DNA of 64,000 nt from Candidatus Saccharimonadota bacterium (GCA_028289135.1 JAQGGW010000005.1:139219-203218), one strand, 5' to 3'; counted from the first letter of the stretch, positions 1,720-58,621 are shown. The notes: generated from the sequence alone by a model not told the origin. A program made the numbers and translations.

Positions 1720-3012
1720 ATGCGCTTTATTTCTTTATTAATTGGTAAAACTATTTTACGTGGGCTCAGGCTTCTCGGGCGAAGCGGTTCGGCGCTTCCT
1801 GGACTTGTTGTTGAGAAAATAAACCCCGGCTTTTTAAAAAAAATGCTTACTGATTTGCCGCAGGGCGTTGTGGTTGTAACTGGGACCAACGGCAAGACCA
1901 CGACCACCAAGGTTATTACGGAGCTTTTGGAAGTACAAGGGTTAAGGGTTCTTACTAATAAAACCGGCAGTAACTTTGTACGCGGTACCGTTACGACAGT
2001 AATTGATAAAGCAAAAATGAACGGTGCGCTGCCGTATGATATTGCCGTTTTTGAGCAGGACGAGGCTCATGCCGTGCATTTTGTGCACCAAATCAAACCC
2101 CGCGGGGTTTTGGCGCTAAACATTATGCGCGACCAAATGGACCGATTTGGCGAAATTGACACCACCGCCAAACTTATTGAAAAGGTCGTTGGCAGCGCAA
2201 CGTCCTGGGTGGTTTTAAACGCCAACGACGAACGGGTCGCAAAAATGCAGGTCCCAGAAGGCATAAAAACTTATTGGTATGGCCATTCAAAAGAGCTGCA
2301 GCATAGTTTTTTGACAGACGATGAGCTGCACCACCAGGATAAAACGGCATATACGCAGGCGGGTGAGATGACGACAGAGCTTACATCATATGATTCCCAA
2401 CAAGTAACATTTAAGATTGATGGGCAGGAAAAAGTTTTTAAAACCGCGCTAAGCGGCAGCCATAACGCCATTAACCTAAGCGCCGCTTTAACGGTACTAA
2501 GCGCCATAGTACCAACTGCAGACATGGCAAAAACTACCGAAGCAGTTGCCAAGCTGCAGCCTGCTTTTGGCCGCGGCGAAACTATCAAATTAAAAACAGG
2601 CGAAACTATAACGCTACAGCTTGTTAAAAATCCTGGCGGTTTTACGCACGCTCTGCGGATGCTCGAGCTGCGTTCTTATGACACAATTGGGATGGCAGTA
2701 AATGACGATTATGCCGACGGTCGCGACGTTTCGTGGCTGTGGGACGTGGATTTTGCTGTTCTTGAAGATACTGACAAGACAGTAGTATGCGGAGGCACGC
2801 GCGCCTATGATATGGCTGTGCGGCTTAAATATGACGGCGTAAAAACAACTGCCAACGAAAGAGAACTTGCGGCATTTGTAAAAACAATAAACCGCTCAGC
2901 CGCTGATTCAAGTACAAAGACGGCTATTATATTTTGTACCTACACTGCGATGCTTAAGATTCGGTCGGATTATAAAAACTACAGCGATGAAGTTTATGGA
3001 GTCACCGTATGA
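1720..3012 (+). CDS. murT: lipid II isoglutaminyl synthase, Mur-ligase-like subunit MurT
   Basis: 430 aa. Mur-ligase P-loop GTNGKTTTT, C-terminal DVSWLWDVDF motif, 4-nt overlap with the next gene. Confidence 0.85.
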   Translation: MRFISLLIGKTILRGLRLLGRSGSALPGLVVEKINPGFLKKMLTDLPQGVVVVTGTNGKTTTTKVITELLEVQGLRVLTNKTGSNFVRGTVTTVIDKAKMNGALPYDIAVFEQDEAHAVHFVHQIKPRGVLALNIMRDQMDRFGEIDTTAKLIEKVVGSATSWVVLNANDERVAKMQVPEGIKTYWYGHSKELQHSFLTDDELHHQDKTAYTQAGEMTTELTSYDSQQVTFKIDGQEKVFKTALSGSHNAINLSAALTVLSAIVPTADMAKTTEAVAKLQPAFGRGETIKLKTGETITLQLVKNPGGFTHALRMLELRSYDTIGMAVNDDYADGRDVSWLWDVDFAVLEDTDKTVVCGGTRAYDMAVRLKYDGVKTTANERELAAFVKTINRSAADSSTKTAIIFCTYTAMLKIRSDYKNYSDEVYGVTV

Positions 3013-3731
3013 GCAAGCAAAATTTACACATAGTGCATTTGTACCCCAAAGAAATGAATATATATGGTGATACTGGCAATACGTTGATTTTGCGACGGCG
3101 AGCTGAATGGCGCGATATTGATGTCCGGGTTAGTTTGGTAGGGATTGGCGACGAGGTTCCGCACGACGCCGACATAATCTTGGGAGGTGGCGGCCAGGAT
3201 GCTGGTCAGGATAAAGTACAGGCCGATTTGCAGGAAAAAGCTGATGCTTTGCATAAACTTGCATTTGATGGCACGGTGATGCTGATGATTTGCGGCATGT
3301 ACCAGCTGTTTGGCAGGGCTTTTAAGACTGGCAGCGGCAACGTCATAAAAGGGATTAGTATTTTGCCGCTAGAAACCACCGCGGGGCTGGAGCGCTTTAT
3401 TGGCAACACGGTGTACCAAACCGAATTTGGCGAAACTGTCGCATACGAAAACCATAGCGGCGTCACGTCGCTGGACGACAAGTCGCTTGCTCTTGGCAGG
3501 GTTGTCCAAGGGGCGGGCAACAATGGCCTCGATAAAACCGAAGGCTGCAGGATAAAAAACGTCTTTGGAACTTATTCTCACGGGCCGCTACTCAGCAAAA
3601 ATCCAGTGTTGGCAGACTTGTTACTTGAAATTGCCCTGAAGCGTAAATACGGTGAATCCGCAATGCTTGCGCTGTTGGACGACAGTTTGGAGCAAGAAGC
3701 CTACAAATTTGCCAAACAGCGCCCGCGATAG
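3009..3731 (+). CDS. gatD: lipid II isoglutaminyl synthase, glutamine amidotransferase subunit GatD
   Basis: 240 aa CobQ-type GATase. ICGMYQLFG (Cys nucleophile) and GTYSHGP. ATGA overlap with murT. Confidence 0.85.
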   Translation: MSKQNLHIVHLYPKEMNIYGDTGNTLILRRRAEWRDIDVRVSLVGIGDEVPHDADIILGGGGQDAGQDKVQADLQEKADALHKLAFDGTVMLMICGMYQLFGRAFKTGSGNVIKGISILPLETTAGLERFIGNTVYQTEFGETVAYENHSGVTSLDDKSLALGRVVQGAGNNGLDKTEGCRIKNVFGTYSHGPLLSKNPVLADLLLEIALKRKYGESAMLALLDDSLEQEAYKFAKQRPR

Positions 3732-3753
3732 TCATATATACTGTTTAGTACTA

Positions 3754-3918
3754 TGAACCCATTTCATATCTTATCCCTGTTCTGCGGTCAAAACTGGCGG
3801 AAAGCTAATAACTTTTTGCTTCGCACCATATCTAAAGATATGCCTTGTTGCAAGAAAGTCATTATCTTCCTAGCCAGTTTTACCCTCGAACTTCAGAGAA
3901 AGGTATGAAATGGGTTCA
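3754..3918. repeat. 165-nt whole-spacer imperfect palindrome (copy 1)
   Basis: Perfect 15-bp terminal inverted repeat TGAACCCATTTCATA (3754-3768) / TATGAAATGGGTTCA (3904-3918). Inner arms AAAACTGGC (3790-3798) / GCCAGTTTT (3873-3881). Apex CATATCT..AGATATG (3827-3842) lies at the geometric centre. The 3' arm covers the recG ATG. Confidence 0.8.
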
Positions 3919-5955
3919 ATGGAACTAACAGGGGGTCTGACTGGTTTAAAAGGCGTGGGGCCAAGCGTTGCGGCGCTTTTTAAGGGCATTGGCATTTCGA
4001 CAATTGCCGAGCTGCTGGATTACTTTCCGCGTACGTATAATGACTATTCCGAAATCCAGACGATTTCGAAGATCAAACCCGGGATGGTTACCGTTGAGGT
4101 CGAGATTAAACAGTCCACAGGGCGCTATGTCCGCCGCGGCATGCATATCACCGAAGCAGTTGCTTCGGACGCTACAGGCAGCGTGCGTTTGCTGTGGTTT
4201 AACCAGCCCTATAGAGCCGCAAGCATTAAAACAGGCCAAAAATACTTTGTTACCGGCAAGCTGGAGCTTAAGGCCCAGCGCTTTAGTATTACAAACCCAA
4301 GTATGGAACAATCAAGCGATTTTCCGCTTCACACGGCACGCATTGTTCCGGTTTATCGTGAAAGCAAGGGCATAACTTCAACACTTCTGCGGCGGGTTTT
4401 ATACCAAGTGATCAAGTCCGCTTATCTATTGCCCGAACCTTTGCCAGAAGAAATCCGACGTAAATATAAATTGTTAACTTACGGCGCTGCAATTAGCGAA
4501 CTGCATTTTCCAACTTCGCGCGAAAGCTTTGCGGCTGCACGGCGGACGATTGGTTTTATAGAAGTTTTTGAGCTGATGCTGGCGGCATCATTAAACAAAG
4601 CCCAGAACCAAAGCGAACCGGCTCCATCAATCCCTTTTAAAGAAAAACTGGCCCAGAAGTTTGTAAAGTCTTTGCCGTTTACCTTAACCAACGCCCAAAG
4701 AGTTGCCGCATGGCAGATTTACCAAGATATTGTCTTCCCGGTACCTATGAACAGGCTTTTGGAAGGCGATGTTGGCTCCGGCAAAACCGTGGTGGCGGGG
4801 ATGGCCGGTCTAATGGCTATGGAGGCCGGATACCAAGTTGCATTAATGGCGCCGACTGAACTTTTGGCGCGGCAGCATGCCGAAACTTTAACCGATTTGT
4901 TTAAGGCGACTGGGCATGATGAGGTCGTGAGCCTACTTGTCGGAAGTTTAAAACCGGCCCAAAAGAAGATAGCCCAGGAACGCATTGCTAGCGGGCATAT
5001 CAAGTTTATTGTTGGAACGCAGGCTTTGCTGCAAGAAAAAGTTGTCATGCAAAACTTGGGGCTGTTGATTGTGGACGAACAGCACCGTTTTGGCGTTGAC
5101 CAGCGTAAAAAGTTGCTAAAAAGTTCGGGGTATATGCCGCATGTGCTCAGCATGACGGCCACCCCAATTCCGCGCTCTTTAGCATTGACGCTGTACGGTG
5201 AGCTGGATATTTCGCTTTTGGATGTTATGCCTATGGGCCGCAAGCCGATTATTACCGAAATTGTATCGCCGAACAGCCGAGAACCGCTTTATAAAAAAAT
5301 CGACGACGAAATTACGCAGGGACGTCAGGTTTACATAGTCTGCCCAGTCATTAAGGAAGGTTCTGGCCTAAAAGCGCCAAGCGCCGAGCAAACATATGAA
5401 AAATTGCGTAAAACCACCTTTAAACATCGCCAGCTGAGGCTTTTGCATGGCAAAATGAAAGACGATGAAAAATCCGCTGTTATGGAAGAGTTCGCAGCCG
5501 GGAAAATAGACATCTTGGTGGCAACAACCGTAATTGAAGTTGGTATCAGCGTCGCTAATGCCAGCGTGATGGTCATAGAGGGCGCTGACAGGTTCGGTCT
5601 TGCCCAAATGCACCAGCTCCGCGGCCGTGTGGGACGGAGTACCGATCAGGGCTACTGTTTTATTGTGCCAAGTGATAGCAAAGCCCCCAGCCCTAGGTTG
5701 CGGGCACTGAGCCAGTCTACAGATGGATTTAAGTTGGCAGAACTTGATCTAGAGCTACGCGGACCAGGAGCTATTTATGGCACGCTGCAGCACGGTGAGC
5801 TTGACCTGCGGATAGCCAAGCTCAGCGATGCCAAACTGCTGGCCGAAAGCCGCAAAGCGGTAAATGACTTTATTAAGGCAAAAATTAAATTGAGCGATTA
5901 CCCCGAACTAAAACGTCGTGTGCGTGCCGCCCAAGCCGTCGTTACCCTGAATTAG
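3910..5955 (+). CDS. recG: ATP-dependent DNA helicase RecG
   Basis: 681 aa. Walker A GDVGSGKT, DEQHRFG, TATPIPR, QLRGRVGR. SD GAAAGG 6 nt upstream. Confidence 0.93.
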   Translation: MGSMELTGGLTGLKGVGPSVAALFKGIGISTIAELLDYFPRTYNDYSEIQTISKIKPGMVTVEVEIKQSTGRYVRRGMHITEAVASDATGSVRLLWFNQPYRAASIKTGQKYFVTGKLELKAQRFSITNPSMEQSSDFPLHTARIVPVYRESKGITSTLLRRVLYQVIKSAYLLPEPLPEEIRRKYKLLTYGAAISELHFPTSRESFAAARRTIGFIEVFELMLAASLNKAQNQSEPAPSIPFKEKLAQKFVKSLPFTLTNAQRVAAWQIYQDIVFPVPMNRLLEGDVGSGKTVVAGMAGLMAMEAGYQVALMAPTELLARQHAETLTDLFKATGHDEVVSLLVGSLKPAQKKIAQERIASGHIKFIVGTQALLQEKVVMQNLGLLIVDEQHRFGVDQRKKLLKSSGYMPHVLSMTATPIPRSLALTLYGELDISLLDVMPMGRKPIITEIVSPNSREPLYKKIDDEITQGRQVYIVCPVIKEGSGLKAPSAEQTYEKLRKTTFKHRQLRLLHGKMKDDEKSAVMEEFAAGKIDILVATTVIEVGISVANASVMVIEGADRFGLAQMHQLRGRVGRSTDQGYCFIVPSDSKAPSPRLRALSQSTDGFKLAELDLELRGPGAIYGTLQHGELDLRIAKLSDAKLLAESRKAVNDFIKAKIKLSDYPELKRRVRAAQAVVTLN

Positions 5956-5978
5956 TTTGTTAGGGGTAAAGAAGACGA

Positions 5979-6143
5979 ACACATTCCACACTTGAGCTAG
6001 TTTCGGTACGGCTGCGCGGAACGCAAGTTAGCTGTACGGGATGGTACTGCTAACGCGTACCGCAAGCGGCCAAGCCGAAAATAGCCAAGAGTTCAGCCAC
6101 GGCTCGGCTTTGCCGAGACCTGGATGAACGGTGTGGGATGTGT
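5979..6143. repeat. 165-nt whole-spacer imperfect palindrome (copy 2, with 3' side branch)
   Basis: 13-bp terminal helix ACACATTCCACAC (5979-5991) / GTGTGGGATGTGT (6131-6143), one G-U. Inner helix CTTGAGCTAGTTTCGG / CCGAAAATAGCCAAG. Apex GTAC-GGGATG-GTAC (6034-6047). Side hairpin CTCGG-CTTTG-CCGAG. Core CCGAAAATAGCCA at 6075-6087. Confidence 0.75.
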
Positions 6144-9901: not shown

Positions 9902-11121
9902 GGCTCCACACAGAAGAACGCGCCATTGTGCTTTATCTGCACGTCCACCAGCCATTCCGCATCCGGCATTACACTATTTTTGACGCCGGCGAGAACCATG
10001 CCTATTTTGACGCGCCAGAGGGCGACGACACCAACAATGCTGACATTGTCCGCAAGGTCGCTGAAAAGTCTTATTACCCTATGAACGAGCGCCTTATGCG
10101 TATGATTAAGGACAACCCAGAGTTTAAGGTTTCGCTTTCCATCACCGGTACTGTGATAGAGCAGTTTGAACGCTACGCACCAGAAGTGCTTGAAAGTTTT
10201 AAAGCATTAGTTGCCACGGGCCGAGTTGAAATTTTAGCAGAAACCTATCATCACTCCTTAGCGTTCTTTTATTCCCGCCAAGAGTTTGAAGCCCAGGTAA
10301 AAATGCACCACGACAAGATAAAAGCTGTTTTTGGTCTAACGCCAACCGCATTCCGTAACACCGAACTTAGCTATAACAACGACATTGCCTACTGGGCCGA
10401 CCAGGCCGGCTATAAAGCGATCATATGCGAAGGCTGGGATCCAATCCTTGACTGGCGCTCACCGAATTTTGTCTACCGTCCTGCCTACACCGACAACATC
10501 AGGTTGCTGATGAAAAACTACAAACTCAGTGACGACCTGGCATTCCGTTTTGGCAATAAGGCATGGGAAGAATATCCGCTAGACACCCAAAAGTTTGTTA
10601 ACTGGGCCAATGCGGCATGGGACCAGCCAATTTTGAACCTTTTTATGGATTATGAAACTTTTGGCGAACACCAATGGGCTGACACCGGAATTTTTGACTT
10701 TATAGAAAACTTGCCAAAAGAATGGCTTAAAACAGCTGGGCATACATTTATGACCGTAACAGAGGCCGCTACTAATTTTGAACCTGTTGACCACATCGAC
10801 GTCCCGCACACAATCACTTGGGCCGACACTGAGCGCGACCTGACGGCGTGGCTTGGCAACCGCATGCAGCACGGCGCCATTACTGCCTTATACGCTTTGG
10901 AAAACGCTATTCTAGAAGCTAAAGATGAAGCCCTAACAGCCGACTGGCGCAAACTTCAAACCAGCGACCATTTTTATTATATGTGCACCAAATGGTGGAG
11001 TGACGGCGACGTCCACGCCTATTTTAGCCCCTACCAAACACCATATATAGCGTATATGAACTTTATGAACGCCTATCACGACATTAAATTCCGTTTAACC
11101 GAAAAAGGGGTGGAGGTTTAA
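9898..11121 (+). CDS. glycoside hydrolase family 57 (alpha-glucan-active)
   Basis: 407 aa. N-terminal LYLHVHQPFR signature typical of GH57. 4-nt overlap with the upstream GT. Confidence 0.8.
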   Translation: MRLHTEERAIVLYLHVHQPFRIRHYTIFDAGENHAYFDAPEGDDTNNADIVRKVAEKSYYPMNERLMRMIKDNPEFKVSLSITGTVIEQFERYAPEVLESFKALVATGRVEILAETYHHSLAFFYSRQEFEAQVKMHHDKIKAVFGLTPTAFRNTELSYNNDIAYWADQAGYKAIICEGWDPILDWRSPNFVYRPAYTDNIRLLMKNYKLSDDLAFRFGNKAWEEYPLDTQKFVNWANAAWDQPILNLFMDYETFGEHQWADTGIFDFIENLPKEWLKTAGHTFMTVTEAATNFEPVDHIDVPHTITWADTERDLTAWLGNRMQHGAITALYALENAILEAKDEALTADWRKLQTSDHFYYMCTKWWSDGDVHAYFSPYQTPYIAYMNFMNAYHDIKFRLTEKGVEV

Positions 11122-11122
11122 G

Positions 11123-13057
11123 ATGGGCAGGCCAGTAATTCTTGGTAACAATGCGCTAACGGTTGGGCTTAACGAACACGGGCTGGTGAACGATTTTTAT
11201 TATCCTTATGTTGGCTTAGAGAACCTAACAACTGCGCGTAGCCTGCATCACTCGGTTGGCGTCTGGGTAGACGGTGTGTTTTCTTGGGTAGATGACGAAA
11301 AATGGGATAAAAGCGTGGACTTCGAGGACGATGCGCTCATTAGTACCATTAGCATGCACAGCAAAGCGCTTGAGCTGGAGCTGTATTTTAAAGATTTTGT
11401 AGATTCGAGGGCAAATATTTTTTGCCGCCAGATTTATGTAAAAAACATGGCTAAAAAACAAAGAGATGTGCGGCTGTTTATGCACCAGGTCTTCCAGATT
11501 TCGGATTCTGGACGTGCTGACACGGCGCTGTTTGAGCCCGAAGAACATTATTTGCTGGACTACAAGGGCCGCTGCGTGCTTCTGATTGGCGGCATGAACG
11601 GAGACGGCGAACTTTTTGACCAGTACGCTGTTGGCAATTACGGCATGGAAGGCAAAGAAGGCACTTTCCGCGATGCAGAAGACGGCGAGCTGTCTGGCAG
11701 CGTTGTAGAGCACAGCGGCGTGGACTCGGTGATGCGTTTCCAAAAAATATTAGCCGCTGGAGCCGAACTTAAGGTTGACTATTGGATAGTTGCATCAGAC
11801 ACCCAGCAAGAGGCCGAAAAAATCCATATTATGCTCAAAGAAACAGGGCTGGATGAGCGGATAACCAGAACCCGGGCTCACTGGCAGCAGTGGCTGCTAA
11901 AATCCATTGAAAAACGCAGTGTAGTGAGCGATGAGCTCCAGCCATGGCTTACAAAGTCATTGCTACTAATTAAAGTGCACATCGATAAGCGCGGCGGGAT
12001 TATCGCCAGCTGCGACTCGTCTATATACAATTACGGCCGCGATTATTACAGCTATGTCTGGCCGCGTGACGGCGCCTTTGCGCTCTGGCCGTTGATCCGC
12101 CTGGGCTATTCGGCCGACGCCAAGCGCTTTTTTAGCTTTTGCAAAGACATTATGCACCCCGACGGCTACATGCTGCACAAATACCAGCCTGACCGCGCCA
12201 TTGGCAGCACCTGGCACCCTCTGCTGCATGGCAGGCACAAAGAGCTGGCCATCCAGGAAGACGAAACGGCAGTTGTTCTGTTTATGCTGGGTGAATTTTT
12301 GGACTACTGTGTGGACGAAGAATTTGTGCACGAAATGTATGATTCTTTCATCCGCCCGGCCGCCAACTTTATGTCAAAGTTTATAGACAAGCAAACCAAC
12401 TTGCCGCACGCATCGTATGACCTCTGGGAAGAAAAGTTTGCGACCCATACCTACACCACGGCCGTTACCTACGGCGCACTCAAAGTGGCAGCGCGGATTG
12501 CGGAAATGTTTAGCGAACACAACGACGCCGAAAAGTGGACGGCCGCAGCCAAACGGATTGGTGACGAGTCAAAAACATTCTTTAACGAAGAGCGCGGTAA
12601 TTATATTAAGGGCTTCTTGCTTGGCGATAACGACGAACTTGTCCTCGACAACACTCTCGATGTTTCGAGCACTTACGGCATATACATGTTCAACTACCCG
12701 GTCACAAAGGATCATCTTACGCTTAGCATTGCATCAATCGAAAAAGAACTGCTTAACTCAGCGCCAATTGGCGGCGTGCCAAGGTATGAATATGACAACT
12801 ATTTTGCCTCTACCCCGCCGTACAAAGGCAACCCATGGTTTGTCACAACACTGTGGCTGGCCCAGCTTTATATGCGCACCGGCGAATACGAAAAGGCCAT
12901 GCAGCTGCTTAAGTGGAGCACCGATCGAGCGGCACCAAGCGGAGCGTTGGCCGAGCAGGTAAACCCAGAAAGCGGCTTTGCAACAGGGGTGTCGCCGCTT
13001 GTTTGGAGCCATGCCGAACTGGCCAACACAATACTGGACGTCTCAAAAACCAAGTAA
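11123..13057 (+). CDS. glycoside hydrolase family 15 (glucoamylase/glucodextranase-like)
   Basis: 644 aa. YSYVWPRDGAF and C-terminal (alpha/alpha)6-type WSHAE segment. Confidence 0.8.
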   Translation: MGRPVILGNNALTVGLNEHGLVNDFYYPYVGLENLTTARSLHHSVGVWVDGVFSWVDDEKWDKSVDFEDDALISTISMHSKALELELYFKDFVDSRANIFCRQIYVKNMAKKQRDVRLFMHQVFQISDSGRADTALFEPEEHYLLDYKGRCVLLIGGMNGDGELFDQYAVGNYGMEGKEGTFRDAEDGELSGSVVEHSGVDSVMRFQKILAAGAELKVDYWIVASDTQQEAEKIHIMLKETGLDERITRTRAHWQQWLLKSIEKRSVVSDELQPWLTKSLLLIKVHIDKRGGIIASCDSSIYNYGRDYYSYVWPRDGAFALWPLIRLGYSADAKRFFSFCKDIMHPDGYMLHKYQPDRAIGSTWHPLLHGRHKELAIQEDETAVVLFMLGEFLDYCVDEEFVHEMYDSFIRPAANFMSKFIDKQTNLPHASYDLWEEKFATHTYTTAVTYGALKVAARIAEMFSEHNDAEKWTAAAKRIGDESKTFFNEERGNYIKGFLLGDNDELVLDNTLDVSSTYGIYMFNYPVTKDHLTLSIASIEKELLNSAPIGGVPRYEYDNYFASTPPYKGNPWFVTTLWLAQLYMRTGEYEKAMQLLKWSTDRAAPSGALAEQVNPESGFATGVSPLVWSHAELANTILDVSKTK

Positions 13058-13220: not shown

Positions 13221-13282
13221 ATACCCCTTGAACAATTTTCATGGGGCATTTTGATTTGTTTTAAATAATTTAGGAGAATGAA

Positions 13283-13984
13283 ATGAGTAATTTAGAAATA
13301 GAGGCGGCCAGGGAGGCTGCCTTAGAGGCACGACAGGTGCTTTTCCCGAACAGATACGAAGAGCCATTAATTGAAGCTTTCCAAGACTTAACGGGAATTG
13401 AAGTGCCTACACCAAAACCCAGGCAGATAACCGTTATGTCCAAAGGGGTAACCTTTGTTTTTCCGAGAGGGAGGAACATTCCATGGCTTACGGCACTTGC
13501 CAACAGGCAGCAAAATGCACCACCAACAATTGGTATGACTGGCTCAGAATGGTACGGCGAATATGCCATGGGAAGTCTTGGTAACTATAACCGTCCGCGA
13601 GTCAATGGGTTCCAAATAAGAGACAAAAAAATGGGTGAGGTTGCTTTGTTTACCCCATCTAATGTAGATAGTGAAGAAACAGCTTTGCAGTTCGCTTACA
13701 ACAAAAAAATAAGTGTTGTAACACCTTACCCCAAGCTGCTGGCGGCAATAGCAGTAAGCGATGGGTGGAGAATATATCAGGCTGAAATTTTTGACGACAT
13801 GCAAGAAACTATCAGCGGCGGTGTTGAAGCCGTAGCCGAGATGTTTGGTTTGCCTGGTGTAGACCTTGTCTGCAAAGGCGATACGCTGGACGCAAATAAC
13901 TGTACCTATATCGGAGTATTACGTGATGTTTTTCCAACGCTTGTTGCGGCAGGACGCTCGAGGTCAAATCGTGAAGCAATATAA
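13283..13984 (+). CDS. hisG: ATP phosphoribosyltransferase-like protein (divergent HisG)
   Basis: 233 aa. RGRNIPWL...IGMTGSEWYGE and ISGGVEAVAEMFGLPGVDLVCKGDTLDANN resemble HisG blocks; the N-terminus is atypical. SD AGGAGA. Confidence 0.6.
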   Translation: MSNLEIEAAREAALEARQVLFPNRYEEPLIEAFQDLTGIEVPTPKPRQITVMSKGVTFVFPRGRNIPWLTALANRQQNAPPTIGMTGSEWYGEYAMGSLGNYNRPRVNGFQIRDKKMGEVALFTPSNVDSEETALQFAYNKKISVVTPYPKLLAAIAVSDGWRIYQAEIFDDMQETISGGVEAVAEMFGLPGVDLVCKGDTLDANNCTYIGVLRDVFPTLVAAGRSRSNREAI

Positions 13985-20453: not shown

Positions 20454-20639
20454 AGACCCTTAAGAAGTAGTAATGACGCGGCGTATTTAAGTTGTCTCAC
20501 AATTTTTATAAAAAATGCCATCGTCTAGGTAGCTTCGGCCGACAAAAACTGCAGTAATACAAAAATACAACAATTATCATCATTTCAGGCGGCCTGTTCT
20601 ATTCTAGTGGCCTGAATCATAAACGGAGTTCAACAAAGC

Positions 20640-28030: not shown

Positions 28031-28044
28031 CAGTAGAGAGTAGC

Positions 28045-28073
28045 TTGCGTAAGCAGTTACAATCTGTTAAAAT
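28045..28073 (+). promoter_or_regulatory. promoter TTGCGT-N17-TAAAAT (extended TG) of the rpsL unit
   Basis: AGCTTGCGTAA...ATCTGTTAAAAT. -35 at 28045-28050, -10 at 28068-28073. Followed by a ~113-nt structured leader (GTGGAG...CTCCAC). Confidence 0.65.
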
Positions 28074-30880: not shown

Positions 30881-31255
30881 ATGGCAGGCCAAGAAACATC
30901 TATTAGAGCTGGAGAGGAATCAGCAGCTGAACAACCGCGATACGCTCGAGTTTTATCTGAAGTTGAAAGAATCCAAGGAGAAGAGGCTAAGCGTATCATA
31001 AGTCTTTCAAAACTTGCTTGGGTATTTGAATTAACACAAAAGCAAGTAAATTTGCATTCTCATTTAGAGGTTGCCGCCGAACGGCTAGCTAGAGGTATCG
31101 CTTCAATTCCAGTATTACCTGAGATATTGGCAGTATTCCAAGAAAATTACACGACTCCGCTTGTTGATGTTCTTGGAGCTGATAGATTCGCCACCATAGT
31201 TGCAGAATGTTCAGATCAAACTAACATTGTTCAATCACAGCCTGAGCTTGCGTAA
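30881..31255 (+). CDS. hypothetical protein (124 aa, ORFan)
   Basis: Starts 1 nt after the previous stop. Its 3' end overlaps the -35 of the fusA promoter. Confidence 0.5.
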   Translation: MAGQETSIRAGEESAAEQPRYARVLSEVERIQGEEAKRIISLSKLAWVFELTQKQVNLHSHLEVAAERLARGIASIPVLPEILAVFQENYTTPLVDVLGADRFATIVAECSDQTNIVQSQPELA

Positions 31256-31276
31256 CACCTCTAAAACTGCTAAAAT
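31248..31276 (+). promoter_or_regulatory. promoter TTGCGT-N17-TAAAAT (extended TG) upstream of fusA
   Basis: AGCTTGCGTAA (same 11-mer as the rpsL promoter) ...CTGCTAAAAT. -35 at 31248-31253, -10 at 31271-31276. Confidence 0.6.
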
Positions 31277-31364
31277 TACAGGGAATATGTGAGTATGGGC
31301 TGGTTTTATACGGCCAAAATCTTACAGATAACAAGTAACTAAAAAATAACCAGGAACCGACCAT

Positions 31365-33455
31365 ATGGCAGACGCAAAGAAAACACCAATGAAAGACATC
31401 CGCAACTTGGGCATTATCGCCCACATTGACGCGGGTAAAACCACTACCACCGAAGGTATTTTGTACCGCACTGGCATCAGCCACAAGATTGGCGCCGTGC
31501 ACGAAGGCGAAACCACTACCGACTGGATGGCTCAGGAGCGTGAGCGCGGTATTACCATCGTTGCTGCCTCTGTTACGTGTTTTTGGAAGGGTAATCAGAT
31601 TAACATTATCGATACTCCTGGTCACATTGACTTTACGGTTGAAGTCGAACGTTCACTCCGTGTGCTTGACGGCGCCTGCGTTGTGTTCGACGGCAAGATG
31701 GGTGTCGAAAGCCAGTCCGAAACTGTTTGGCGCCAGGCCGACAAATACGGCGTGCCTCGTATCTGTTTTATCAACAAAATCAACCAAACCGGTGGCGATT
31801 TCTACAAGAGCCTCGAATCAATTCATAACCGTTTGAGCAAGCGTGCTTTCCCAGTCCACATTCCAATTGGCTTTGAACAGAGCATCAACGGTCTTGTTGA
31901 CCTAGTTGAAATGAAGGCCTATACCTACACCGAATTCCACGACAAAGAATTAGTTGAAGCGCCAATTCCAGAAGACATGATGGATCAGGTTAAAAAAGCC
32001 CGCAGCCTGCTGGTTGAAAACGCCGTTGCCGAAGACGAAGCAATTCTTGAAAAATACTTTGAAGTTGGCGAAGAAGGTCTTAGCGTTGCTGAAATCAAGC
32101 AGGCGATCCGTACCGCAGTATTGTCTGGCAAGTTCTTTGCCGTTACCGGCGGCGATGGCCGTGGTGTTATCGTTGAAAAAGTTTTGGACATGGTGAATGA
32201 CTACCTCCCAAGCCCGCTGGACAAGGGTTCAACTTGGGGCACGCATCCAAAAACTGGTGACGAAGAAGAGCGCAAGCCATCCGAAGCTGAGCCGTTTTCA
32301 GCACTTGCGTTCAAGATTACTACCGACCCATTTGTTGGTAAGCTGGCATACTTCCGCGTTTATTCCGGAACTGTTACCGCTGGTTCATACATTTTAAACA
32401 GCTCAAACGGTGAAAAAGAGCGCGTTGGCCGTATTGTCCGCCTCCAGGCCGACAAACGTGCTGACGTTACCGAAGTGGGTGCTGGTGACATTGCCGCAAT
32501 CGTCGGCCTAAAGGCTACAACTACTGGCCATACCCTTTGTGACCCTGCGCACCCAATTGTGCTTGAAAGCATCGAATTCCCAGAACCACCTGTTTCTATC
32601 GCCATCGAACCAAAGACCAAGTCTGACCAAGAAAAAATGGGCATTGCTATGCAGCGCCTTGCCGAAGAAGATCCAACATTTAGAATCCGTGTCGACGACG
32701 AAACCGGCCAAACGGTTATCTCTGGAATGGGTGAGCTTCACCTCGAAATCCTGGTTGACCGCATGAAGCGCGAATTTGATGTTGAAGCCAACATTGGCGC
32801 GCCGCAGGTTGCCTACCGCGAAACTGTCCGCAAAGCAGGCGTTGAAGCCCAAGGTAAGTTTATCCGCCAATCTGGTGGACGTGGCCAATACGGTGACGCG
32901 TGGCTCAGAATTTCTCCAAACGAACAAGGCAAGGGCTTTGAGTTCAAAAACTCCATCAAGGGTGGTGTTATACCTGGTGAATACATCAAGCCAGTTGAAG
33001 CTGGTGTTGTTGAAGCCATGAGCACCGGTACCGTCGCTGGTTACCCAGTTGTTGATGTTATTGTTGAGCTGTTTGACGGTTCTTACCACGAAGTTGACTC
33101 CAACGAAATGGCCTTCAAAATCGCCGGCTCAATGGGCTTCCAGGCCGCAATGAAAGCCGCTGGACCAGTTTTGCTCGAACCTGTCATGAAAGTCGTTGTT
33201 GTAACTCCTGAAGAGTTCATGGGTGACGTCATCGGCGACCTAAACTCCAAGCGCGCACGCATTGAATCCATGGAAGACCTAAGCTCCGGCATCAAAGAAA
33301 TTACTGCTTTTGTTCCTCTTGGCGAAATGTTTGGCTACACAACCGCGCTACGTTCTTCTACCAAAGGCCGCGCAAGCAGCTCAATGGAGCTTGACCACTA
33401 CGCTGACGTTCCAAACCACGTTGCCGAAGCAATTGCATCTAAACGAGCAAAATAA
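31365..33455 (+). CDS. fusA: elongation factor G
   Basis: 696 aa. G1 AHIDAGKTT, DTPGHIDF; full five-domain length. Confidence 0.97.
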   Translation: MADAKKTPMKDIRNLGIIAHIDAGKTTTTEGILYRTGISHKIGAVHEGETTTDWMAQERERGITIVAASVTCFWKGNQINIIDTPGHIDFTVEVERSLRVLDGACVVFDGKMGVESQSETVWRQADKYGVPRICFINKINQTGGDFYKSLESIHNRLSKRAFPVHIPIGFEQSINGLVDLVEMKAYTYTEFHDKELVEAPIPEDMMDQVKKARSLLVENAVAEDEAILEKYFEVGEEGLSVAEIKQAIRTAVLSGKFFAVTGGDGRGVIVEKVLDMVNDYLPSPLDKGSTWGTHPKTGDEEERKPSEAEPFSALAFKITTDPFVGKLAYFRVYSGTVTAGSYILNSSNGEKERVGRIVRLQADKRADVTEVGAGDIAAIVGLKATTTGHTLCDPAHPIVLESIEFPEPPVSIAIEPKTKSDQEKMGIAMQRLAEEDPTFRIRVDDETGQTVISGMGELHLEILVDRMKREFDVEANIGAPQVAYRETVRKAGVEAQGKFIRQSGGRGQYGDAWLRISPNEQGKGFEFKNSIKGGVIPGEYIKPVEAGVVEAMSTGTVAGYPVVDVIVELFDGSYHEVDSNEMAFKIAGSMGFQAAMKAAGPVLLEPVMKVVVVTPEEFMGDVIGDLNSKRARIESMEDLSSGIKEITAFVPLGEMFGYTTALRSSTKGRASSSMELDHYADVPNHVAEAIASKRAK

Positions 33456-33634
33456 TGTCTCCTAAAACTCCCGAATATATTAATCCTGCCGAAGCACCTG
33501 TTGACCTTGTTCGCGATAGTGAAACACGATCAACTCTTTATGTAGTCGGCGGCGCAATTTTATTTGCAGCAGTTGCTGCTGGTGCAGTAATGATCGGTGC
33601 GCCAAAGAAATTGTTCAGATTCGAAAGTGACTGA
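33455..33634 (+). CDS. hypothetical single-pass membrane micro-protein (59 aa)
   Basis: Below the ORF-track cutoff. Its ATG overlaps the fusA TAA (TAATG). MSPKTPEYINPAE...LYVVGGAILFAAVAAGAVMIGAPKK has one clear hydrophobic helix. Confidence 0.45.
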   Translation: MSPKTPEYINPAEAPVDLVRDSETRSTLYVVGGAILFAAVAAGAVMIGAPKKLFRFESD

Positions 33635-33664
33635 TAATTAATAACTGGGTGGCGGAGAATTGAC

Positions 33665-34264
33665 ATGCCTACTCATCCCGAACTTGTAGCACAAACACTT
33701 TTGACACTTGAGGCACATCGCCAGGCTCCCCATATAATTGATGATGCCTATGAAGATGGCATTATTGATGATGCTCATCATCTAGTAATTACTTCTAAAG
33801 GCAACTCGCAAACTGCAGTAGTGACACCGATGTATAGGGGCTTCGTGTATGGTTCAAGCCTGCTCGAACGATTTGATATGGCGGCATTATGTAATCGAGT
33901 TTTTGTCGAGGCGCGTATTAAAGTGGCTTCAAATGATCGTAAACAACTTGAAACAGCCAACGTAACGCTTAGATATGCTTTTGCACCAAAATTCCTACAA
34001 CCAAATAAGGTTCTAGAAACCCAGGCTCGCTACCCATTAGATCCAGAGGCCGAATATGGCACTATGGAAAGAGTTATTGCTGCAATTGGCGAAGTAGGTG
34101 TTGAAGGGGCAACAGTTCCAAATACTAGTGGTTATGTAGAGGTACCTGATGACCCGTACAGAAAAAATAACGACCGCTGGGTTGTAACTGATCACATGAG
34201 CGGTTTAGTAGTTGCTGAATGTATCCATGAAGCAGTGAGCCGGTTGCATTTTACGGAGCTTTAA
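33665..34264 (+). CDS. hypothetical protein (199 aa, ORFan)
   Basis: SD GGAG ~8 nt upstream. No recognisable motif. Sits between fusA and tuf. Confidence 0.5.
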   Translation: MPTHPELVAQTLLTLEAHRQAPHIIDDAYEDGIIDDAHHLVITSKGNSQTAVVTPMYRGFVYGSSLLERFDMAALCNRVFVEARIKVASNDRKQLETANVTLRYAFAPKFLQPNKVLETQARYPLDPEAEYGTMERVIAAIGEVGVEGATVPNTSGYVEVPDDPYRKNNDRWVVTDHMSGLVVAECIHEAVSRLHFTEL

Positions 34265-34403: not shown

Positions 34404-35588
34404 ATGGCAGAGAATTTTGATCGAACAAAGCCTCACGTTAACGTAGGTACTATGGGTCACGTTGACCACGGTAAAACAACTCTAACAGCTGCAATTACTA
34501 CTGTTTTGGCAAAGCGTATGCCAAGCAAAGTTAACCAACCAATTGCTTACGACCAGATCGACAACGCACCTGAAGAAAAAGCTCGTGGTATCACGATTGC
34601 TACTTCCCACCAGGAATACGAATCAGAAAAGCGCCACTACGCGCACGTCGACATGCCAGGTCACGCCGACTACGTTAAGAACATGATTACCGGTGCCGCT
34701 CAGATCGACGGCGCAATCTTGGTTGTTGCTGCAAACGACGGTCCACTTCCACAGACTCGTGAGCACGTATTGCTCGCCCGCCAGGTCGGTGTTCCAAGCA
34801 TCCTCGTATTCATGAACAAGATGGACCTTGCTGATCCAGAACTCATCGAACTTGTTGAGATGGACATCCGCGAACTCTTGGCCAAGAATGGTTATGACGA
34901 AAACGCTCCAATCATCAAGGGCTCAGCTACAAAAGCTATGGCCGGCGACAAAGAAGCTGAAGACGCTATTATGGAACTCGTTAAGGCTATGGACGACTTC
35001 GTTCCAGAACCAAAGCGCGAACTCGATAAGCCATTCTTGATGAGCATCGAAGACGTATTCTCGATCAAGGGTCGTGGTACTGTTGCAACCGGTCGTATCG
35101 AAACTGGTATCGTTAAGGTTAACGAAGAAGTTGAAATCGTCGGTCTTAAGGACACTCGTAAGAGCGTTGTTACCGGTGTTGAAATGTTCAAGAAGAACCT
35201 CGACCAAGGTCAGGCTGGCGACAACGTCGGTATCCTCCTCCGCGGTATCGAGCGTGAAGATATCGAGCGCGGCCAAGTTTTGGCTAAGCCAGGTACTATC
35301 ACTCCTCACACCGAATTTGACGCTGAAGTTTATATCTTGACCAAAGAAGAAGGCGGCCGTCACACTCCTTTCTTCAAGGGCTACAAGCCACAGTTTTACT
35401 TCCGCACAACGGACGTAACTGGTGAAGTTGAACTCCCAGCTGACAAAGAAATGGTTATGCCTGGTGACACTATCACTTTCAAAGTGAAGCTTCTCCAGCC
35501 AATCGCCATGGAACAAGGTCTCCGCTTCGCTATCCGCGAAGGTGGCCGTACTGTTGGTGCTGGTGTTGTTACTAAGATTACTAAGTAG
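34404..35588 (+). CDS. tuf: elongation factor Tu
   Basis: 394 aa from [34 protein letters not shown] 8 nt upstream. The longer ORF-track start (34311) is not supported. Confidence 0.97.
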
Positions 35589-35718
35589 GTTCTCGCCCAT
35601 TTATCAGGGTACATTGCAGGCTAAAACCTGCGACAGAAAAAGGAGCAGTACGTTTGTACAGCTCCTTTTTCGTGCTCGGCCTTAGCTCTGCACTGCACTC
35701 CTGAAAATGACCGAGAAC
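35589..35718. repeat. 130-nt whole-spacer imperfect palindrome (copy A) directly after tuf
   Basis: Outer arms GTTCTCGCCCATTT (35589-35602) / AAATGACCGAGAAC (35705-35718). The 5' half and the reverse complement of the 3' half align along the whole length. Apex is the terminator hairpin. Homologous to copy B. Confidence 0.75.
35637..35670 (+). terminator. intrinsic (bidirectional-looking) terminator of tuf
   Basis: AAAAAGGAGCAGTAC-GTTT-GTACAGCTCCTTTTT, with an A-run and a T-run flanking the stem. Confidence 0.8.
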
Positions 35719-35870
35719 GGCTCAACTACGCTTCTATGCACGGCAAGAAACGAAAAACTGCATCCAAATGCATCGGCCAGTGACATGTTTGAATTGTTCC
35801 AGGAAATGAGATTTTGTTATTTTAGTCAAAACTATGCTAAAGTAGGTTTAATTAAATGAGGTTAATTGAG

Positions 35871-36215
35871 ATGGCGGAATTTTGTCCTGGATGCGATAGA
35901 GCGGGAATGGTTGTAGGTGATGTAGCTATAAGTATAAAAAAAGACGAACTTAGAAGTCCTTTAACAGATCTAGCTATAACTTTTACAGACGAAGATGGTT
36001 TTTTGCAACGCGGTTTTTTTGGTAGAGTTGTAGACCAAGAAGCAGACCTGGATACCAGCCTACTTGGCGAACGTCTTCTCAGCCGTATAGATCGCTGTAA
36101 AAGCCCAATGAGAAATGGTACATGCCCAGCCTTTAATCATGAGGTGGTTGAACAGTTAATACGATCTCAAGTAAGCCAGGAAGCAATAACTGAGCCTGAC
36201 CAGCCAGGAATTTAG
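35871..36215 (+). CDS. hypothetical protein with two Cys pairs (possible zinc-ribbon-like)
   Basis: MAEFCPGCDRAG...RCKSPMRNGTCPAF. ATG 35871 has GAGG 9 nt upstream; ATG 35856 is also possible. Confidence 0.45.
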   Translation: MAEFCPGCDRAGMVVGDVAISIKKDELRSPLTDLAITFTDEDGFLQRGFFGRVVDQEADLDTSLLGERLLSRIDRCKSPMRNGTCPAFNHEVVEQLIRSQVSQEAITEPDQPGI

Positions 36216-36295
36216 AAAAGCAAAAATACCATCGTGTAAAGAAGCTCACTGACTTATCTAGATAGACATTCATAATAAGTATCTTAGGAGTGCTT

Positions 36296-36628
36296 ATGTC
36301 TGTAGAGTTTAAGGGGCCTGTTATACCTGTTAGAATTGATGGCGAAAATGCTTCGCTACGTATTGTGCGTGATATGTCGTATAACATCGAAGCCGCCAGC
36401 GTGCTGTCTAACCCCGATGCAAATCCACCTTATGTCCAGCTAACACTGATATCTCCTCCAGGACCGCATTATAAAGAAGTTTGTGCAGATAAAATTACAG
36501 GTGATCCTGAGCCAAACCGTGCTCGCCTTATGTTTAACGAGCCATTTGGCGTTGATAAACTTATAGCTAACGCAATGAAAAGAGTAAGCAAGTCCAGGCA
36601 CCCAGCAGGAAGAGGAAATGCGAATTAA
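36296..36628 (+). CDS. hypothetical protein (110 aa, ORFan)
   Basis: SD GGAG 5 nt upstream of ATG 36296. No recognisable motif. Confidence 0.5.
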   Translation: MSVEFKGPVIPVRIDGENASLRIVRDMSYNIEAASVLSNPDANPPYVQLTLISPPGPHYKEVCADKITGDPEPNRARLMFNEPFGVDKLIANAMKRVSKSRHPAGRGNAN

Positions 36629-36687
36629 TTAAATTGCTTGACAGTAGGAATATAATTAAAGCATAAGTATTAATAAGGAACACAAAA

Positions 36688-36918
36688 ATGAAAAATGGAT
36701 TTGAGGATTCGGTAGCTCCAGTAGCTTATGGAGCTGATTTCGCTGGGCGAGTTGCTGTTGCAAGAGTTAATATGGATCAAGTATTAGAAACTCATCCTAA
36801 ACCAGATGTAAGATCTGTTGCAGCTCATGCGGGCAAAGTAATATTTCGAGAAATTGTATTTGCAGGTGCATGGTTAAACGCTGAAATTCATGGCGTAGAT
36901 CTTAGCCAAGTTGGTTAG
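36688..36918 (+). CDS. hypothetical protein (76 aa, ORFan)
   Basis: SD AAGGAA 8 nt upstream. No recognisable motif. Confidence 0.45.
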   Translation: MKNGFEDSVAPVAYGADFAGRVAVARVNMDQVLETHPKPDVRSVAAHAGKVIFREIVFAGAWLNAEIHGVDLSQVG

Positions 36919-51629: not shown

Positions 51630-51643
51630 GAGTGTTGATATTT

Positions 51644-51865
51644 ATGGCCAAGAACAAGGAAGTCATCGAACTAGCCGGTACCATCACCGAGACACTACCG
51701 GGCACCCAGTTCCGTGTTGAACTCGAGAATGGCCATCAAATCATTGCACACGTTGCAGGTAAGATGCGAAAGCACTTTATCCGTATCGTGCCAGGAGACA
51801 GCGTGACGGTAGAATTGACACCTTACGATCTCACCAAAGGTCGTATAACCTACCGCAAATCTTAG
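51644..51865 (+). CDS. infA: translation initiation factor IF-1
   Basis: 73 aa from [16 protein letters not shown]... S1-like fold pattern. Confidence 0.95.
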
Positions 51866-51869
51866 CTTT

Positions 51870-51978
51870 CGTAGCTTGCACATTTCAGGCCAAAATCTGC
51901 GTCAAAAAGTCTCAATGTACTTCTTTGTACATCTCAACTTTTGTGCTCGATTATGACTCTGAACTGCGCTAAGCTACG
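51870..51978. repeat. 109-nt whole-spacer imperfect palindrome (copy B) directly after infA
   Basis: 8-bp outer helix CGTAGCTT (51870-51877) / AAGCTACG (51971-51978). Apex ATGTAC-TTCTTT-GTACAT with A-/T-run flanks. Aligns with copy A over ~150 nt (CATTTCAGGCCAAAATCTGCG vs CATTGCAGGCTAAAACCTGCG, and so on). Confidence 0.7.
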
Positions 51979-52120
51979 CAACCTAAGATGGTTGCACGAC
52001 AGAAACTTTACAAGAAAAGACATAGCAAGGTCCTAAAAGACCAGAGATGTAGTTTCTTGCAAAGAGTCTAATTATTAATAACTAACGCAGTGTGTCACCC
52101 CTTTGAAAGGAGCGATCCGT

Positions 52121-52237
52121 ATGAAAGTACGTGCGAGTATCAAAAAAATGAGCCCAGACGACAAAATCGTCAAGCGAAAAGGACGTTTATACGTCATCAA
52201 TAAGTTCAAACCTAAGCACAAGCAAAGGCAAGGTTAA
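52121..52237 (+). CDS. rpmJ: 50S ribosomal protein L36 (Cys-less form)
   Basis: 38 aa, [38 protein letters not shown]. Below the ORF-track cutoff. SD AAGGAG upstream. Confidence 0.9.
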
Positions 52238-56832: not shown

Positions 56833-57078
56833 CTAGTGAATCCAGGTTTCTTGTTCGGGAAGTACTTCGTCAGCTTTTAGCTGGTTTAGTCGTCCAAGTA
56901 TAGCGTTTCTCCCAATCCGTTGTGTGTGCAGGTTCGCCCTTTCAGCGGCTAATGCAACTTCGTCTATGGGCTTGTTAGCCAACACTTCTTTTACTGCCTC
57001 ACCGCCTAAATGCACGGCCATATTGGCAGCATAAAGCTCTCGTCCTACTTCTTCTATTTTCGGGTTTCCGTTATTCAT
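56833..57078 (-). CDS. hypothetical protein (81 aa)
   Basis: SD AGGAGA 7 nt upstream. Its translation-initiation region is near-identical to that of hisG. Confidence 0.5.
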   Translation of the reverse strand: MNNGNPKIEEVGRELYAANMAVHLGGEAVKEVLANKPIDEVALAAERANLHTQRIGRNAILGRLNQLKADEVLPEQETWIH

Positions 57079-57101
57079 TTCATTTCTCCTAAATTATTTA
57101 A

Positions 57102-57267
57102 AATAAAAAAGCCTCCTGGTTGGAGGCTTAAGGTTCGTTAGTTTGTGCTAAATTACAATGTAAAGTAAGCAATGCCTCCGTGGGTCGAAGACGTAAAGAA
57201 ATTGTTTAACTGGATTGAGACTGTTCTCATAGCGAGAAATAATAACATATACATTTTATAATAGCAA
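57102..57267 (-). promoter_or_regulatory. leaderless leader-ORF attenuator (Phe-Phe codons), minus strand
   Basis: Minus strand: TTGCTA (57267-57262), 17 nt, TATTAT (57244-57239). ATG at 57230 opens the 25-codon ORF MRTVSIQLNNFFTSSTHGGIAYFTL (to 57153). GGAGGC (57179-57174) competes with the terminator AAGCCTCC-AACCA-GGAGGCTT plus T-run (57129-57105). Confidence 0.5.
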
Positions 57268-58236: not shown

Positions 58237-58350
58237 ATGAAAACAACAGTTCAACAATTCATCTGGCGTTACCACCTAAAATGTTGGCGGTACTGATCGA
58301 ATTGCTCAGATTTTTTTAGAATTACCGCCAACATGGGCGGTTTTTAATTT
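58237..58350 (+). promoter_or_regulatory. leader-ORF attenuator W2 (Trp codons) upstream of the trpS operon
   Basis: 19-codon ORF MKTTVQQFIWRYHLKCWRY (58237-58296). X TGTTGGCGGTA (58282-58292) pairs over 11 bp with Y TACCGCCAACA (58323-58333). Terminator ACCGCC-AACATG-GGCGGT plus TTTTTAATTTTT (58324-58350). Confidence 0.65.
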
Positions 58351-58366
58351 TTAAAGGAGAAATGAA

Positions 58367-58621
58367 ATGAATTTACAAGAAGCAGGTCAATTATTACGAG
58401 CAAAGGGCATAGAAGTTGACCCTACTGATCCTCGTGACGTTATACAAATCGGTCTAGATATGGGTCATATAGGACTCAAGCATCGACTGACCGAATTAAC
58501 GGGCAGTTACGATCGTGCAGACATAGCAGCTATGCGAAGAGGTGGGCTTGTGGTGGAAGCTGTCGGCTTCGGCCAGGCGGTATATGAAGCAGTATTTATC
58601 GATCAAATTACCCAAATTTAA
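58367..58621 (+). CDS. hypothetical protein (84 aa)
   Basis: SD AAAGGAGA upstream. First ORF after attenuator W2. Confidence 0.5.
   Translation: MNLQEAGQLLRAKGIEVDPTDPRDVIQIGLDMGHIGLKHRLTELTGSYDRADIAAMRRGGLVVEAVGFGQAVYEAVFIDQITQI

Follow-up and report, generated by a model that had tools for sequence, protein, structure and literature searches.

The window, our term for the whole 64,000-nucleotide stretch of DNA under analysis, is a segment of a Saccharibacteria (TM7) chromosome. Housekeeping genes are followed by ribosomal clusters, nearly all on the + strand. In particular, the order is rpoB-rpoC-rpsL-rpsG-fusA-tuf and then the S10/spc/alpha ribosomal-protein genes. In a comparison of rplB with the GTDB species representatives, the best matches are Saccharibacteria MAGs throughout, with identities of up to 96%. 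The tuf gene (34404-35588, +) encodes EF-Tu with the Pfam domains GTP_EFTU, D2, and D3; its start was picked from the translation. The infA gene (51632-51865, +) encodes IF-1 (Pfam eIF-1a) and has the same gene order as in the related locus L001. Downstream of infA, rpmJ starts at 52122. Lineage-specific ORFs with no Pfam match are situated between fusA and tuf (59 and 199 aa; 33455-34264) and between tuf and rpsJ (119, 112, and 76 aa; 35856-36918). In relatives, small non-ribosomal ORFs are located directly 5' of rplC, the position expected for rpsJ.

Three related elements lie in the window, called copies A, B, and C for convenience. Copy A (35589-35718) is directly downstream of tuf, its first base being the base after the tuf stop codon. 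Its better-folding strand is the - strand, which is antisense to tuf. In the tuf sense (+), the apex of copy A (35637-35670) comprises an A-run (35637-35641), a hairpin (35642-35665), and a T-run (35666-35670), with the sequence AAAAA / GGAGC-A-GTAC GTTT GTAC-A-GCTCC / TTTTT, which reads alike on the opposite strand. Copy B (51860-51990; better-folding strand, -) is directly downstream of infA and starts 4-5 nt past its stop codon. The apex of copy B (51904-51942, +) comprises an A-run (51904-51908), a weak, AT-rich hairpin of the form ATGTAC/TTCTTT/GTACAT (51915-51932), and a T-run (51939-51942). Copy C (5974-6095, +) is a diverged member in the 3' spacer of recG, inverted relative to A and B.

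As a sample of relatives, we use 81 rplB-centred Saccharibacteria loci, referred to by L numbers. The first search covers the 350 nt 3' of tuf and infA in these loci. A search for contigs encoding the EF-Tu of the window gives none, and the same search with IF-1 gives L001 only.

A family of hairpin-forming intergenic repeats

A first-pass annotation of the window placed related palindromic elements directly after tuf (35589-35718) and infA (51870-51978), and both are present exactly as given. Their similarity is genuine. The local alignment of A and B scores 54; in 1000 dinucleotide shuffles, the score is 16.8 ± 2.4 and never exceeds 33 (z = 15.5). The possibility that A and B are no more alike than shuffled sequence does not hold. 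With copy A as the query, a blastn search of the whole window recovers copy B (71% identity, 93 nt, E = 1e-5). Homology extends over about 90-120 nt, which is shorter than the alignment of about 150 nt that had been reported.

Copies A, B, and C are members of a family of hairpin-forming repeats, about 120-130 nt in length, that occupy intergenic spacers of one clade of Saccharibacteria. A profile of A plus B run on the tuf and infA 3' regions gives the first homologues, and a wider seed set adds the rplC and rpsH-rplF sites. Two covariance models, R1 (built from 17 copies) and R2 (built from 20 copies, in the opposite orientation), recover the identical set; the R2 search, in the folding orientation, finds no members beyond those of R1. 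The set consists of 22 copies of an element of about 125 nt in 17 sequences. Three copies are in the window (3 per 64 kb), 18 are in 15 of the 81 rplB-centred loci, and one is in a metagenome contig (L104). The elements after tuf and infA, correctly recognized at first pass, are thus two of at least 22 copies, and the original description understated the family.

Copy A scores 79.6 bits with R1 and 83.4 bits with R2 (minus strand), and copy B scores 92.4 and 93.7 bits (minus strand), respectively. Copy C scores 31.4 bits with R1 on the minus strand (E = 3.6e-7 with filters off, 7.7e-6 in the other R1 search) and 41.5 bits with R2 on the plus strand (E = 2.9e-7). It is presumably the third copy noticed at first pass, which does exist, though it is distant and inverted. 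The E values of the 19 homologues outside the window go down to 1e-25 with R2 and 1e-29 with R1.

The 22 copies occupy at least six kinds of site and occur on both strands. Ten are after infA, five after tuf, and four upstream of rplC; the remaining three are in the rpsH-rplF spacer, after recG, and after a pilin-like gene (in L104). The loci that bear copies are all in the nearer part of the sample, with rplB identities of 96-70%, and no copy is found in any of the 17 most distant loci.

Searches beyond the sample are almost empty. A single scan of metagenomes with a 19-base type 1 pattern gives six matches, one of them true (L104); the pattern is probably too narrow for so diverse a family. 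A 16-base pattern of the 3' arm has 21 matches in viral contigs, and these are random because none passes the covariance model. Blastn gives no match of copy A in phages or of the L025 copy in plasmids. At the gathering threshold, Rfam reports one tRNA in the whole window and nothing else; at E <= 10, A and the L037 copy give far-sub-threshold microRNA and sRNA noise only, and the L104 copy gives no match. The literature searched on repeats, MITEs, and IS200 elements of Saccharibacteria and Patescibacteria contains no description of such repeats. The family is apparently undescribed in these collections and this literature.

Two further fragments had been proposed upstream of rpoB (about 20527-20600) and fusA (about 31300-31320), and this part of the annotation does not stand. 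The exact matches are 10-11 nt in length (20581-20590 and 31312-31322) with blastn E values of 3-10, and dozens of matches of equal score occur within coding DNA. With filters disabled and a limit of E <= 10, scanning all of the window with the covariance model reports nothing at either place. The two fragments are chance matches.

A separate observation concerns L006, in which about 330 nt (11764-12093) are added between rplV and rpsC and about 260 nt (10858-11118) between rplB and rpsS. Both stretches read as ORFs. The first gives a weak element-like match on its minus strand (R1, 25.5 bits, E = 4e-4).

Covariation and strand asymmetry of the hairpin

The structure was predicted with RNAalifold on a structure-blind MAFFT alignment. 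The predicted fold is one long hairpin with four helices and a conserved apex, cGUAC-loop-GUACg. In the better orientation, 87% of cells are in pairs, and both partners have changed in 18 of the 22 pairs. Covariation scores 0.59, compared with 0.24 ± 0.02 for shuffles, none of which (0/500) attains the observed value, and it falls to 0.06-0.15 when the pairing partners are slid. The covariation analysis suggested at first pass thus backs the hairpin. Copies A and B are also whole-length imperfect palindromes, as described: the mRNA-sense RNA folds of the stretches 35580-35730 and 51860-51990 have energies of -66.6 kcal/mol (z -8.0) and -44.4 kcal/mol (z -6.65).

The conservation sits in the core, which for A and B, read in the gene sense, is GCACA..GGGC-GAAAG-CTCCG .. 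cGTAC-loop-GTACg .. GTGCTCG..CTGCAC. The outer helices of A and B differ in sequence, in agreement with the initial observation, and the outer stems in general have locus-specific sequences with the complementarity kept. By locus, the outer helices are GTTCTCG/CGAGAAC, CGTAGCTT/AAGCTACG, and TCGAACCTTC/GAAGGTTCGA; the outer stem of A is CAGGGTAC/GCACTCCTG, compared with CGGGGCAC/GCGCTCCCG in L064. A local GGGC-GAAA-GCCC hairpin, the basis of an alternative 'clover' fold, was rejected; its support is inconsistent, with one pair in 6 of 20 sequences.

Two subtypes can be distinguished. Type 1 (A, B, L064, L104, and L005) has the inner A-run, hairpin, and T-run. Type 2 (L002, L037, L017, L051, L019, and most others) is without the T-run; by eye, a 16-17-nt motif is directly repeated on either side of its apex, and the arms as wholes are inverted. 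L025 is an exception within type 2, with short A- and T-runs. The subtype is independent of location, both types being found after tuf and after infA.

The two strands of the element do not fold equally well. Of the 20 copies folded on both strands, 18 are more stable as the complement of the R1 orientation, and the mean difference between gene strand and complement is about 10 kcal/mol. For copy A, the RNA fold has -63.7 kcal/mol in the mRNA sense and -78.4 kcal/mol (z -12.3) in the complement; for copy B, the values are -37.5 and -50.4 kcal/mol (z -8.5), the mRNA-sense z values of both copies being those of the longer stretches given above. The corresponding energies are -49.2 and -65.0 kcal/mol for L037, -32.7 and -48.8 kcal/mol for L019, and -32.3 (z -2.1) and -68.7 kcal/mol (z -10.05) for L025. 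With DNA parameters, copy A has -38.0 on the + strand and -45.8 on the - strand, and the sense strand of L025 folds no better than shuffled sequence (z -0.3), compared with z -5.4 for its complement.

The asymmetry arises because the G.U pairs of one strand are C.A mismatches on the other. Summed over the copies, the folding strand has 97 G.U pairs and the other strand 38. On the folding strand, the helix is almost unbroken and contains many G.U (G.T) pairs, and most copies share a conserved tandem GUGC/GUGC motif in it. Such an abundance of G.U pairs, like the tandem motif, is less usual in a DNA hairpin than in an RNA hairpin.

In 18 of 22 copies, including every one at a tuf or infA site, the strand that folds well lies antisense to the neighbouring genes. 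Four copies are inverted. In L035, L051 (upstream of rplC), and copy C, the asymmetry travels with the element, the better fold being that of the gene-sense strand; for copy C, the energies are -57.1 (+) and -49.6 (-). L061 is an inverted copy in which the asymmetry does not travel with the element. The keto skew of the + strand is -0.01 to -0.03 in the background and down to -0.15 in the copies. A transcription-linked mutation bias as the source of the asymmetry is excluded by three of the four inverted copies together with the small background skew. Because the complement of the tuf and infA mRNA folds much better than the mRNA itself, the hairpin kept by selection appears to be that of the strand opposite tuf and infA, not that of their mRNA.

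Turnover and the terminator question

The distribution of the family is patchy among close relatives. The IF-1 of L001 is identical to the predicted protein of the window, and its infA DNA is about 94% identical by eye, but L001 is without copy B; its infA-rpmJ spacer is about 75 nt, compared with 256 nt in the window. L002 (rplB identity 96%) and L003 are also without copy B.

A remnant of a second, older infA-type copy (52001-52059) adjoins copy B. It is internally deleted (AGAAACTTTACA ... TGTAGTTTCT) and aligns with a counterpart in L005 with a score of 41. At their 5' ends, the L005 remnant and the full L037 copy agree in 21 of 23 positions. L005 shares the arrangement of the window, that is, B plus a deleted older copy. 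By eye, the short spacers of L001 and L002 keep the 3' end of the remnant. Therefore, the empty sites of L001 and L002 look like deletions, not like pristine sites.

The sites after tuf vary as well. L002 has only the 3' half of the copy A orthologue, and a type 2 copy occupies the place of the 5' arm. In L003, an ordinary terminator follows tuf instead of the element. The L104 copy, behind the pilin-like gene, is a chimera with an almost identical A-like apex and B-like flanks.

Two infA sites deserve separate mention. In L003 (19374-19460), a short hairpin and a T-run follow infA, with an outer stem (ACTTTCACAGTTAGGCAC ... GTGCCTTTTTGTGAAG) that by eye is like that of the infA-type copies. 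Heavy deletion of such a copy might have left this hairpin, which the covariance models miss. In L030 (19101-19258), an infA-site copy (34-35 bits) has about 60 nt of unrelated inserted sequence in place of its apex.

The elements after tuf and infA had been proposed to double as terminators. This is plausible for A only; B is weak. In the gene sense, the stem of the copy A apex alone has -11.9 kcal/mol and is followed by U5, and the equivalent apices have -13.5 kcal/mol with U6 (L064) and -11.4 kcal/mol with U6 (L104). The stem of the copy B apex alone has -5.8 kcal/mol and is followed by U4. A simple consensus terminator scan calls neither apex; for A, the likely reason is the A.A mismatch within the stem. 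Since the apices of A, L064, and L104 are alike and all follow genes expected to have a terminator, copy A is a plausible candidate for an intrinsic terminator or attenuator of tuf. Copy B would be at most a leaky attenuator before rpmJ, in a cluster that presumably reads through to rpmJ-rpsM.

Termination is a derived trait of one subtype and does not define the family, because most members are without the T-run. In addition, a type 1 transcript that ends at the T-run would never include the conserved, covarying 3' arm. With the hairpin apparently selected on the strand opposite the genes, a terminator role of the element would be a side job at most.

Interpretation and comparison with known elements

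Our preferred reading, which we regard as probable, is a REPIN/ERIC-like interspersed palindromic repeat with a single-stranded stage, with A and B belonging to a terminator-bearing subtype. The family behaves like repeats of this kind: the element occupies unrelated loci in both orientations, its presence differs among close relatives, copies are nested within or adjoin older ones, and internal deletion degrades them. Its propagation or maintenance would pass via a single-stranded form of one particular strand. This form would most likely be ssDNA on which an enzyme supplied in trans acts, in the manner of REPIN/RAYT or IS200/IS605 systems, or alternatively the element's own RNA; the RNA-like richness in G.U pairs and the tandem motif speak against the DNA form. 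In type 1, the inner helix has been turned into an A-run, a G+C hairpin, and a T-run. The analysis shows family membership, covariation, the patchy distribution, and the strand asymmetry, and from it we infer the mobility mechanism and the terminator activity. Among the window ORFs scanned, there is no transposase or RAYT. Different loci have no terminal inverted repeats in common, and no target-site duplication is visible: copy A is flanked by AAGTAG and GGCTCA, and the sequences beside copy B (CTTAG ... CTAAG) lengthen the palindrome and do not repeat directly.

Among described elements, the REPIN comes closest. REPINs are about 100 nt in length and form hairpins in ssDNA or mRNA with compensatory changes, and a RAYT dimer is the proposed agent of their movement (PMC3116915). 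They have conserved flanks and a variable middle, and insert into or beside existing copies (PMC3116915). They persist for long times, mostly vertically (bioRxiv 10.1101/2022.05.22.493013). The present family likewise consists of long intergenic hairpins with compensatory changes (the 18 of 22 pairs) and long persistence. REPIN-like nesting is seen in L002, where the type 2 copy lies inside the A orthologue, and in the window and L005, where B lies beside the deleted older copy. A typical REP-RAYT system comprises two REP units in inverted orientation, one RAYT (Y1/HUH transposase) gene per genome with the repeat on its flanks, and tens to hundreds of extragenic copies. However, neither a RAYT (among the window ORFs scanned) nor a REP 16-mer is identified here, the apex-flanking motifs (GAGCACCGAAsCGGArG, folding strand) are direct and not inverted repeats, and the host has a CPR genome of about 1 Mb.

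Other palindromic elements are less close. ERIC sequences are imperfect palindromes of about 127 bp in transcribed intergenic regions, patchy at orthologous sites, found across species and in either orientation. By description, our family is like ERIC in size, palindromic form, patchiness, and occurrence in both orientations, but the taxon is another one, ERIC hosts being enterobacteria or vibrios, and the strand asymmetry is directed away from the mRNA of the host. In Neisseria, the Correia (NEMIS) elements are MITE-like palindromic repeats of 100-150 nt beside genes; they form RNA hairpins, can affect transcript processing and termination, and have conserved terminal inverted repeats and TA duplications. 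In our family, the ends vary by locus and no duplication is seen, so that membership among MITEs or Correia elements was rejected on both features.

Integron attC sites are imperfect palindromes of 57-141 nt at gene 3' ends, conserved in structure more than in sequence, and their active bottom strand is antisense to the cassette genes. In contrast, the present copies have no R''/R' boxes (RYYYAAC ... GTTRRRY), have a conserved core sequence, lie within ribosomal-protein operons, and are accompanied by no integrase or cassette array. Membership among attC sites was rejected on the R boxes: A has a 5' GTT and a 3' AAC, in the reverse order, and the ends vary. Compared with intrinsic terminators, the apices of A, L064, and L104 are alike in having a G+C hairpin and 5-6 T directly after a highly expressed gene. 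However, this is only the tip of a conserved 125-nt structure; most members are without the T-run, and B is weak. The family would best be filed as a bacterial interspersed palindromic repeat of the REPIN/ERIC-like kind.

Alternatively, though we think it unlikely, the element could be a vertically inherited cis-acting RNA hairpin of ribosomal-protein operon mRNAs, immobile and lost in some lineages. As a 3'-UTR or intercistronic hairpin, it would terminate, attenuate, or stabilize transcripts, or be cleaved by RNase III. Copies abut the stop codons of highly expressed genes, compensatory changes are found, type 1 copies have T-runs, and the 'empty' sites of L001 and L002 resemble deletions. 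In addition, the outer stems are homologous and in equal orientation among the infA-site copies, which persist as orthologues in 10 species, and among the tuf-site copies A, L064, L002 (half), and L051 (partial). What looks like long vertical retention at fixed tuf and infA sites argues for a host function over frequent movement, and so speaks against our preferred reading. However, a cis-acting mRNA hairpin fits poorly with an mRNA-sense strand that folds worse, most clearly in L025 (z -2.1 with RNA and -0.3 with DNA parameters, compared with about -10 for the antisense strand). It also fits poorly with the copies at unrelated loci (recG, the pilin-like gene, and the rplC leader), with the inverted, nested, and chimeric copies, and with the T-run missing in most members.

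A less likely alternative, with little probability in our view, is an antisense RNA from the minus strand that targets the sense mRNA or keeps antisense transcription out of the operons. This would agree with the antisense position of the folding strand in most copies (18/22), with the RNA-like G.U-rich helices and tandem motif, and with the type 1 apex, which is a hairpin followed by a U-run on the minus strand too. A promoter-like site on the minus strand (52098->52071; GTGACA-16-AATAAT, 10/12) is positioned just upstream of B in that direction, and by eye its -35-like TGACAC is kept in relatives. However, near A, neither strand has a promoter-like site. Moreover, the conserved block by rpmJ is also present in L001 and L002, which are free of the element, and hence is not tied to it. 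The folding strand is gene-sense in four copies, and the complete hairpin has no terminator after it. The block itself, ATTATTAATAAnyTAAGCAGTGTGTCAC (52070-52100), is located 20-40 nt 5' of the rpmJ start and is found in L001, L002, L003, L005, L025, and L037; its sole good promoter-like match is on the minus strand.

We regard as very improbable an autoregulatory binding site for a ribosomal protein, that is, an rRNA mimic reused at operon junctions. Most copies are within ribosomal-protein clusters and the internal loops are conserved, but copies are also found after recG and the pilin-like gene, and the element is missing from the closest relatives. In addition, the wrong strand folds, and no Rfam ribosomal-protein leader is matched; a ribosomal-protein leader was rejected. 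Chance likeness of two AT-rich terminator hairpins is refuted by the shuffling result and by the 19 further homologues outside the window.

The interspersed-repeat reading that we prefer has a bolder extension, which we offer as speculative. Despite their streamlined genomes of about 1 Mb, Saccharibacteria might keep ancient, vertically persistent, strand-specific hairpin replicators that are copied via a single-stranded intermediate, some of them domesticated as terminators. The intermediate would be either ssDNA, handled by an HUH-type or other enzyme not yet recognized, or RNA that is copied back into DNA. Copies would survive preferentially with the strong-folding strand antisense to essential operons.

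Genomes of the candidate phyla radiation are regarded as minimal and repeat-poor. If our preferred reading is true, intragenomic sequence populations of the REPIN/ERIC type extend to this radiation. The gain, loss, and nesting of copies provide a handle for the comparative and population genomics of uncultured Saccharibacteria. A fold selected opposite the host genes would bear on the question of whether DNA or RNA is the form in which such repeats live. For annotation, caution is advisable: 'terminators' of tuf and infA in this clade may be the tips of larger elements.

Three further features of the window stand apart from the family. A whole-length palindrome of about 215 nt (3729-3943) is unrelated to the repeats. 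It sits between a GatD-like gene (3009-3731) and recG, overlaps the listed recG start, and has RNA folds of -83.5 kcal/mol (+; z -8.4) and -86.4 kcal/mol (-; z -9.0); no second copy is found in the window or in the related loci. A 32-nt stretch just 3' of rpoC (28042-28073) is 72% similar to one spanning the rpsG stop codon (31245-31276; AGCTTGCGTAA...), which may be chance. Finally, nearly identical leaders (TTTTAAATAATTTAGGAGAAATGAAATGAAT) at 13255-13282, 57079-57107, and 58342-58372 are positioned 5' of three genes, at 13283 (+), 56833-57078 (-), and 58367 (+), respectively; their sequences suggest a common promoter/RBS module or small paralogous genes.
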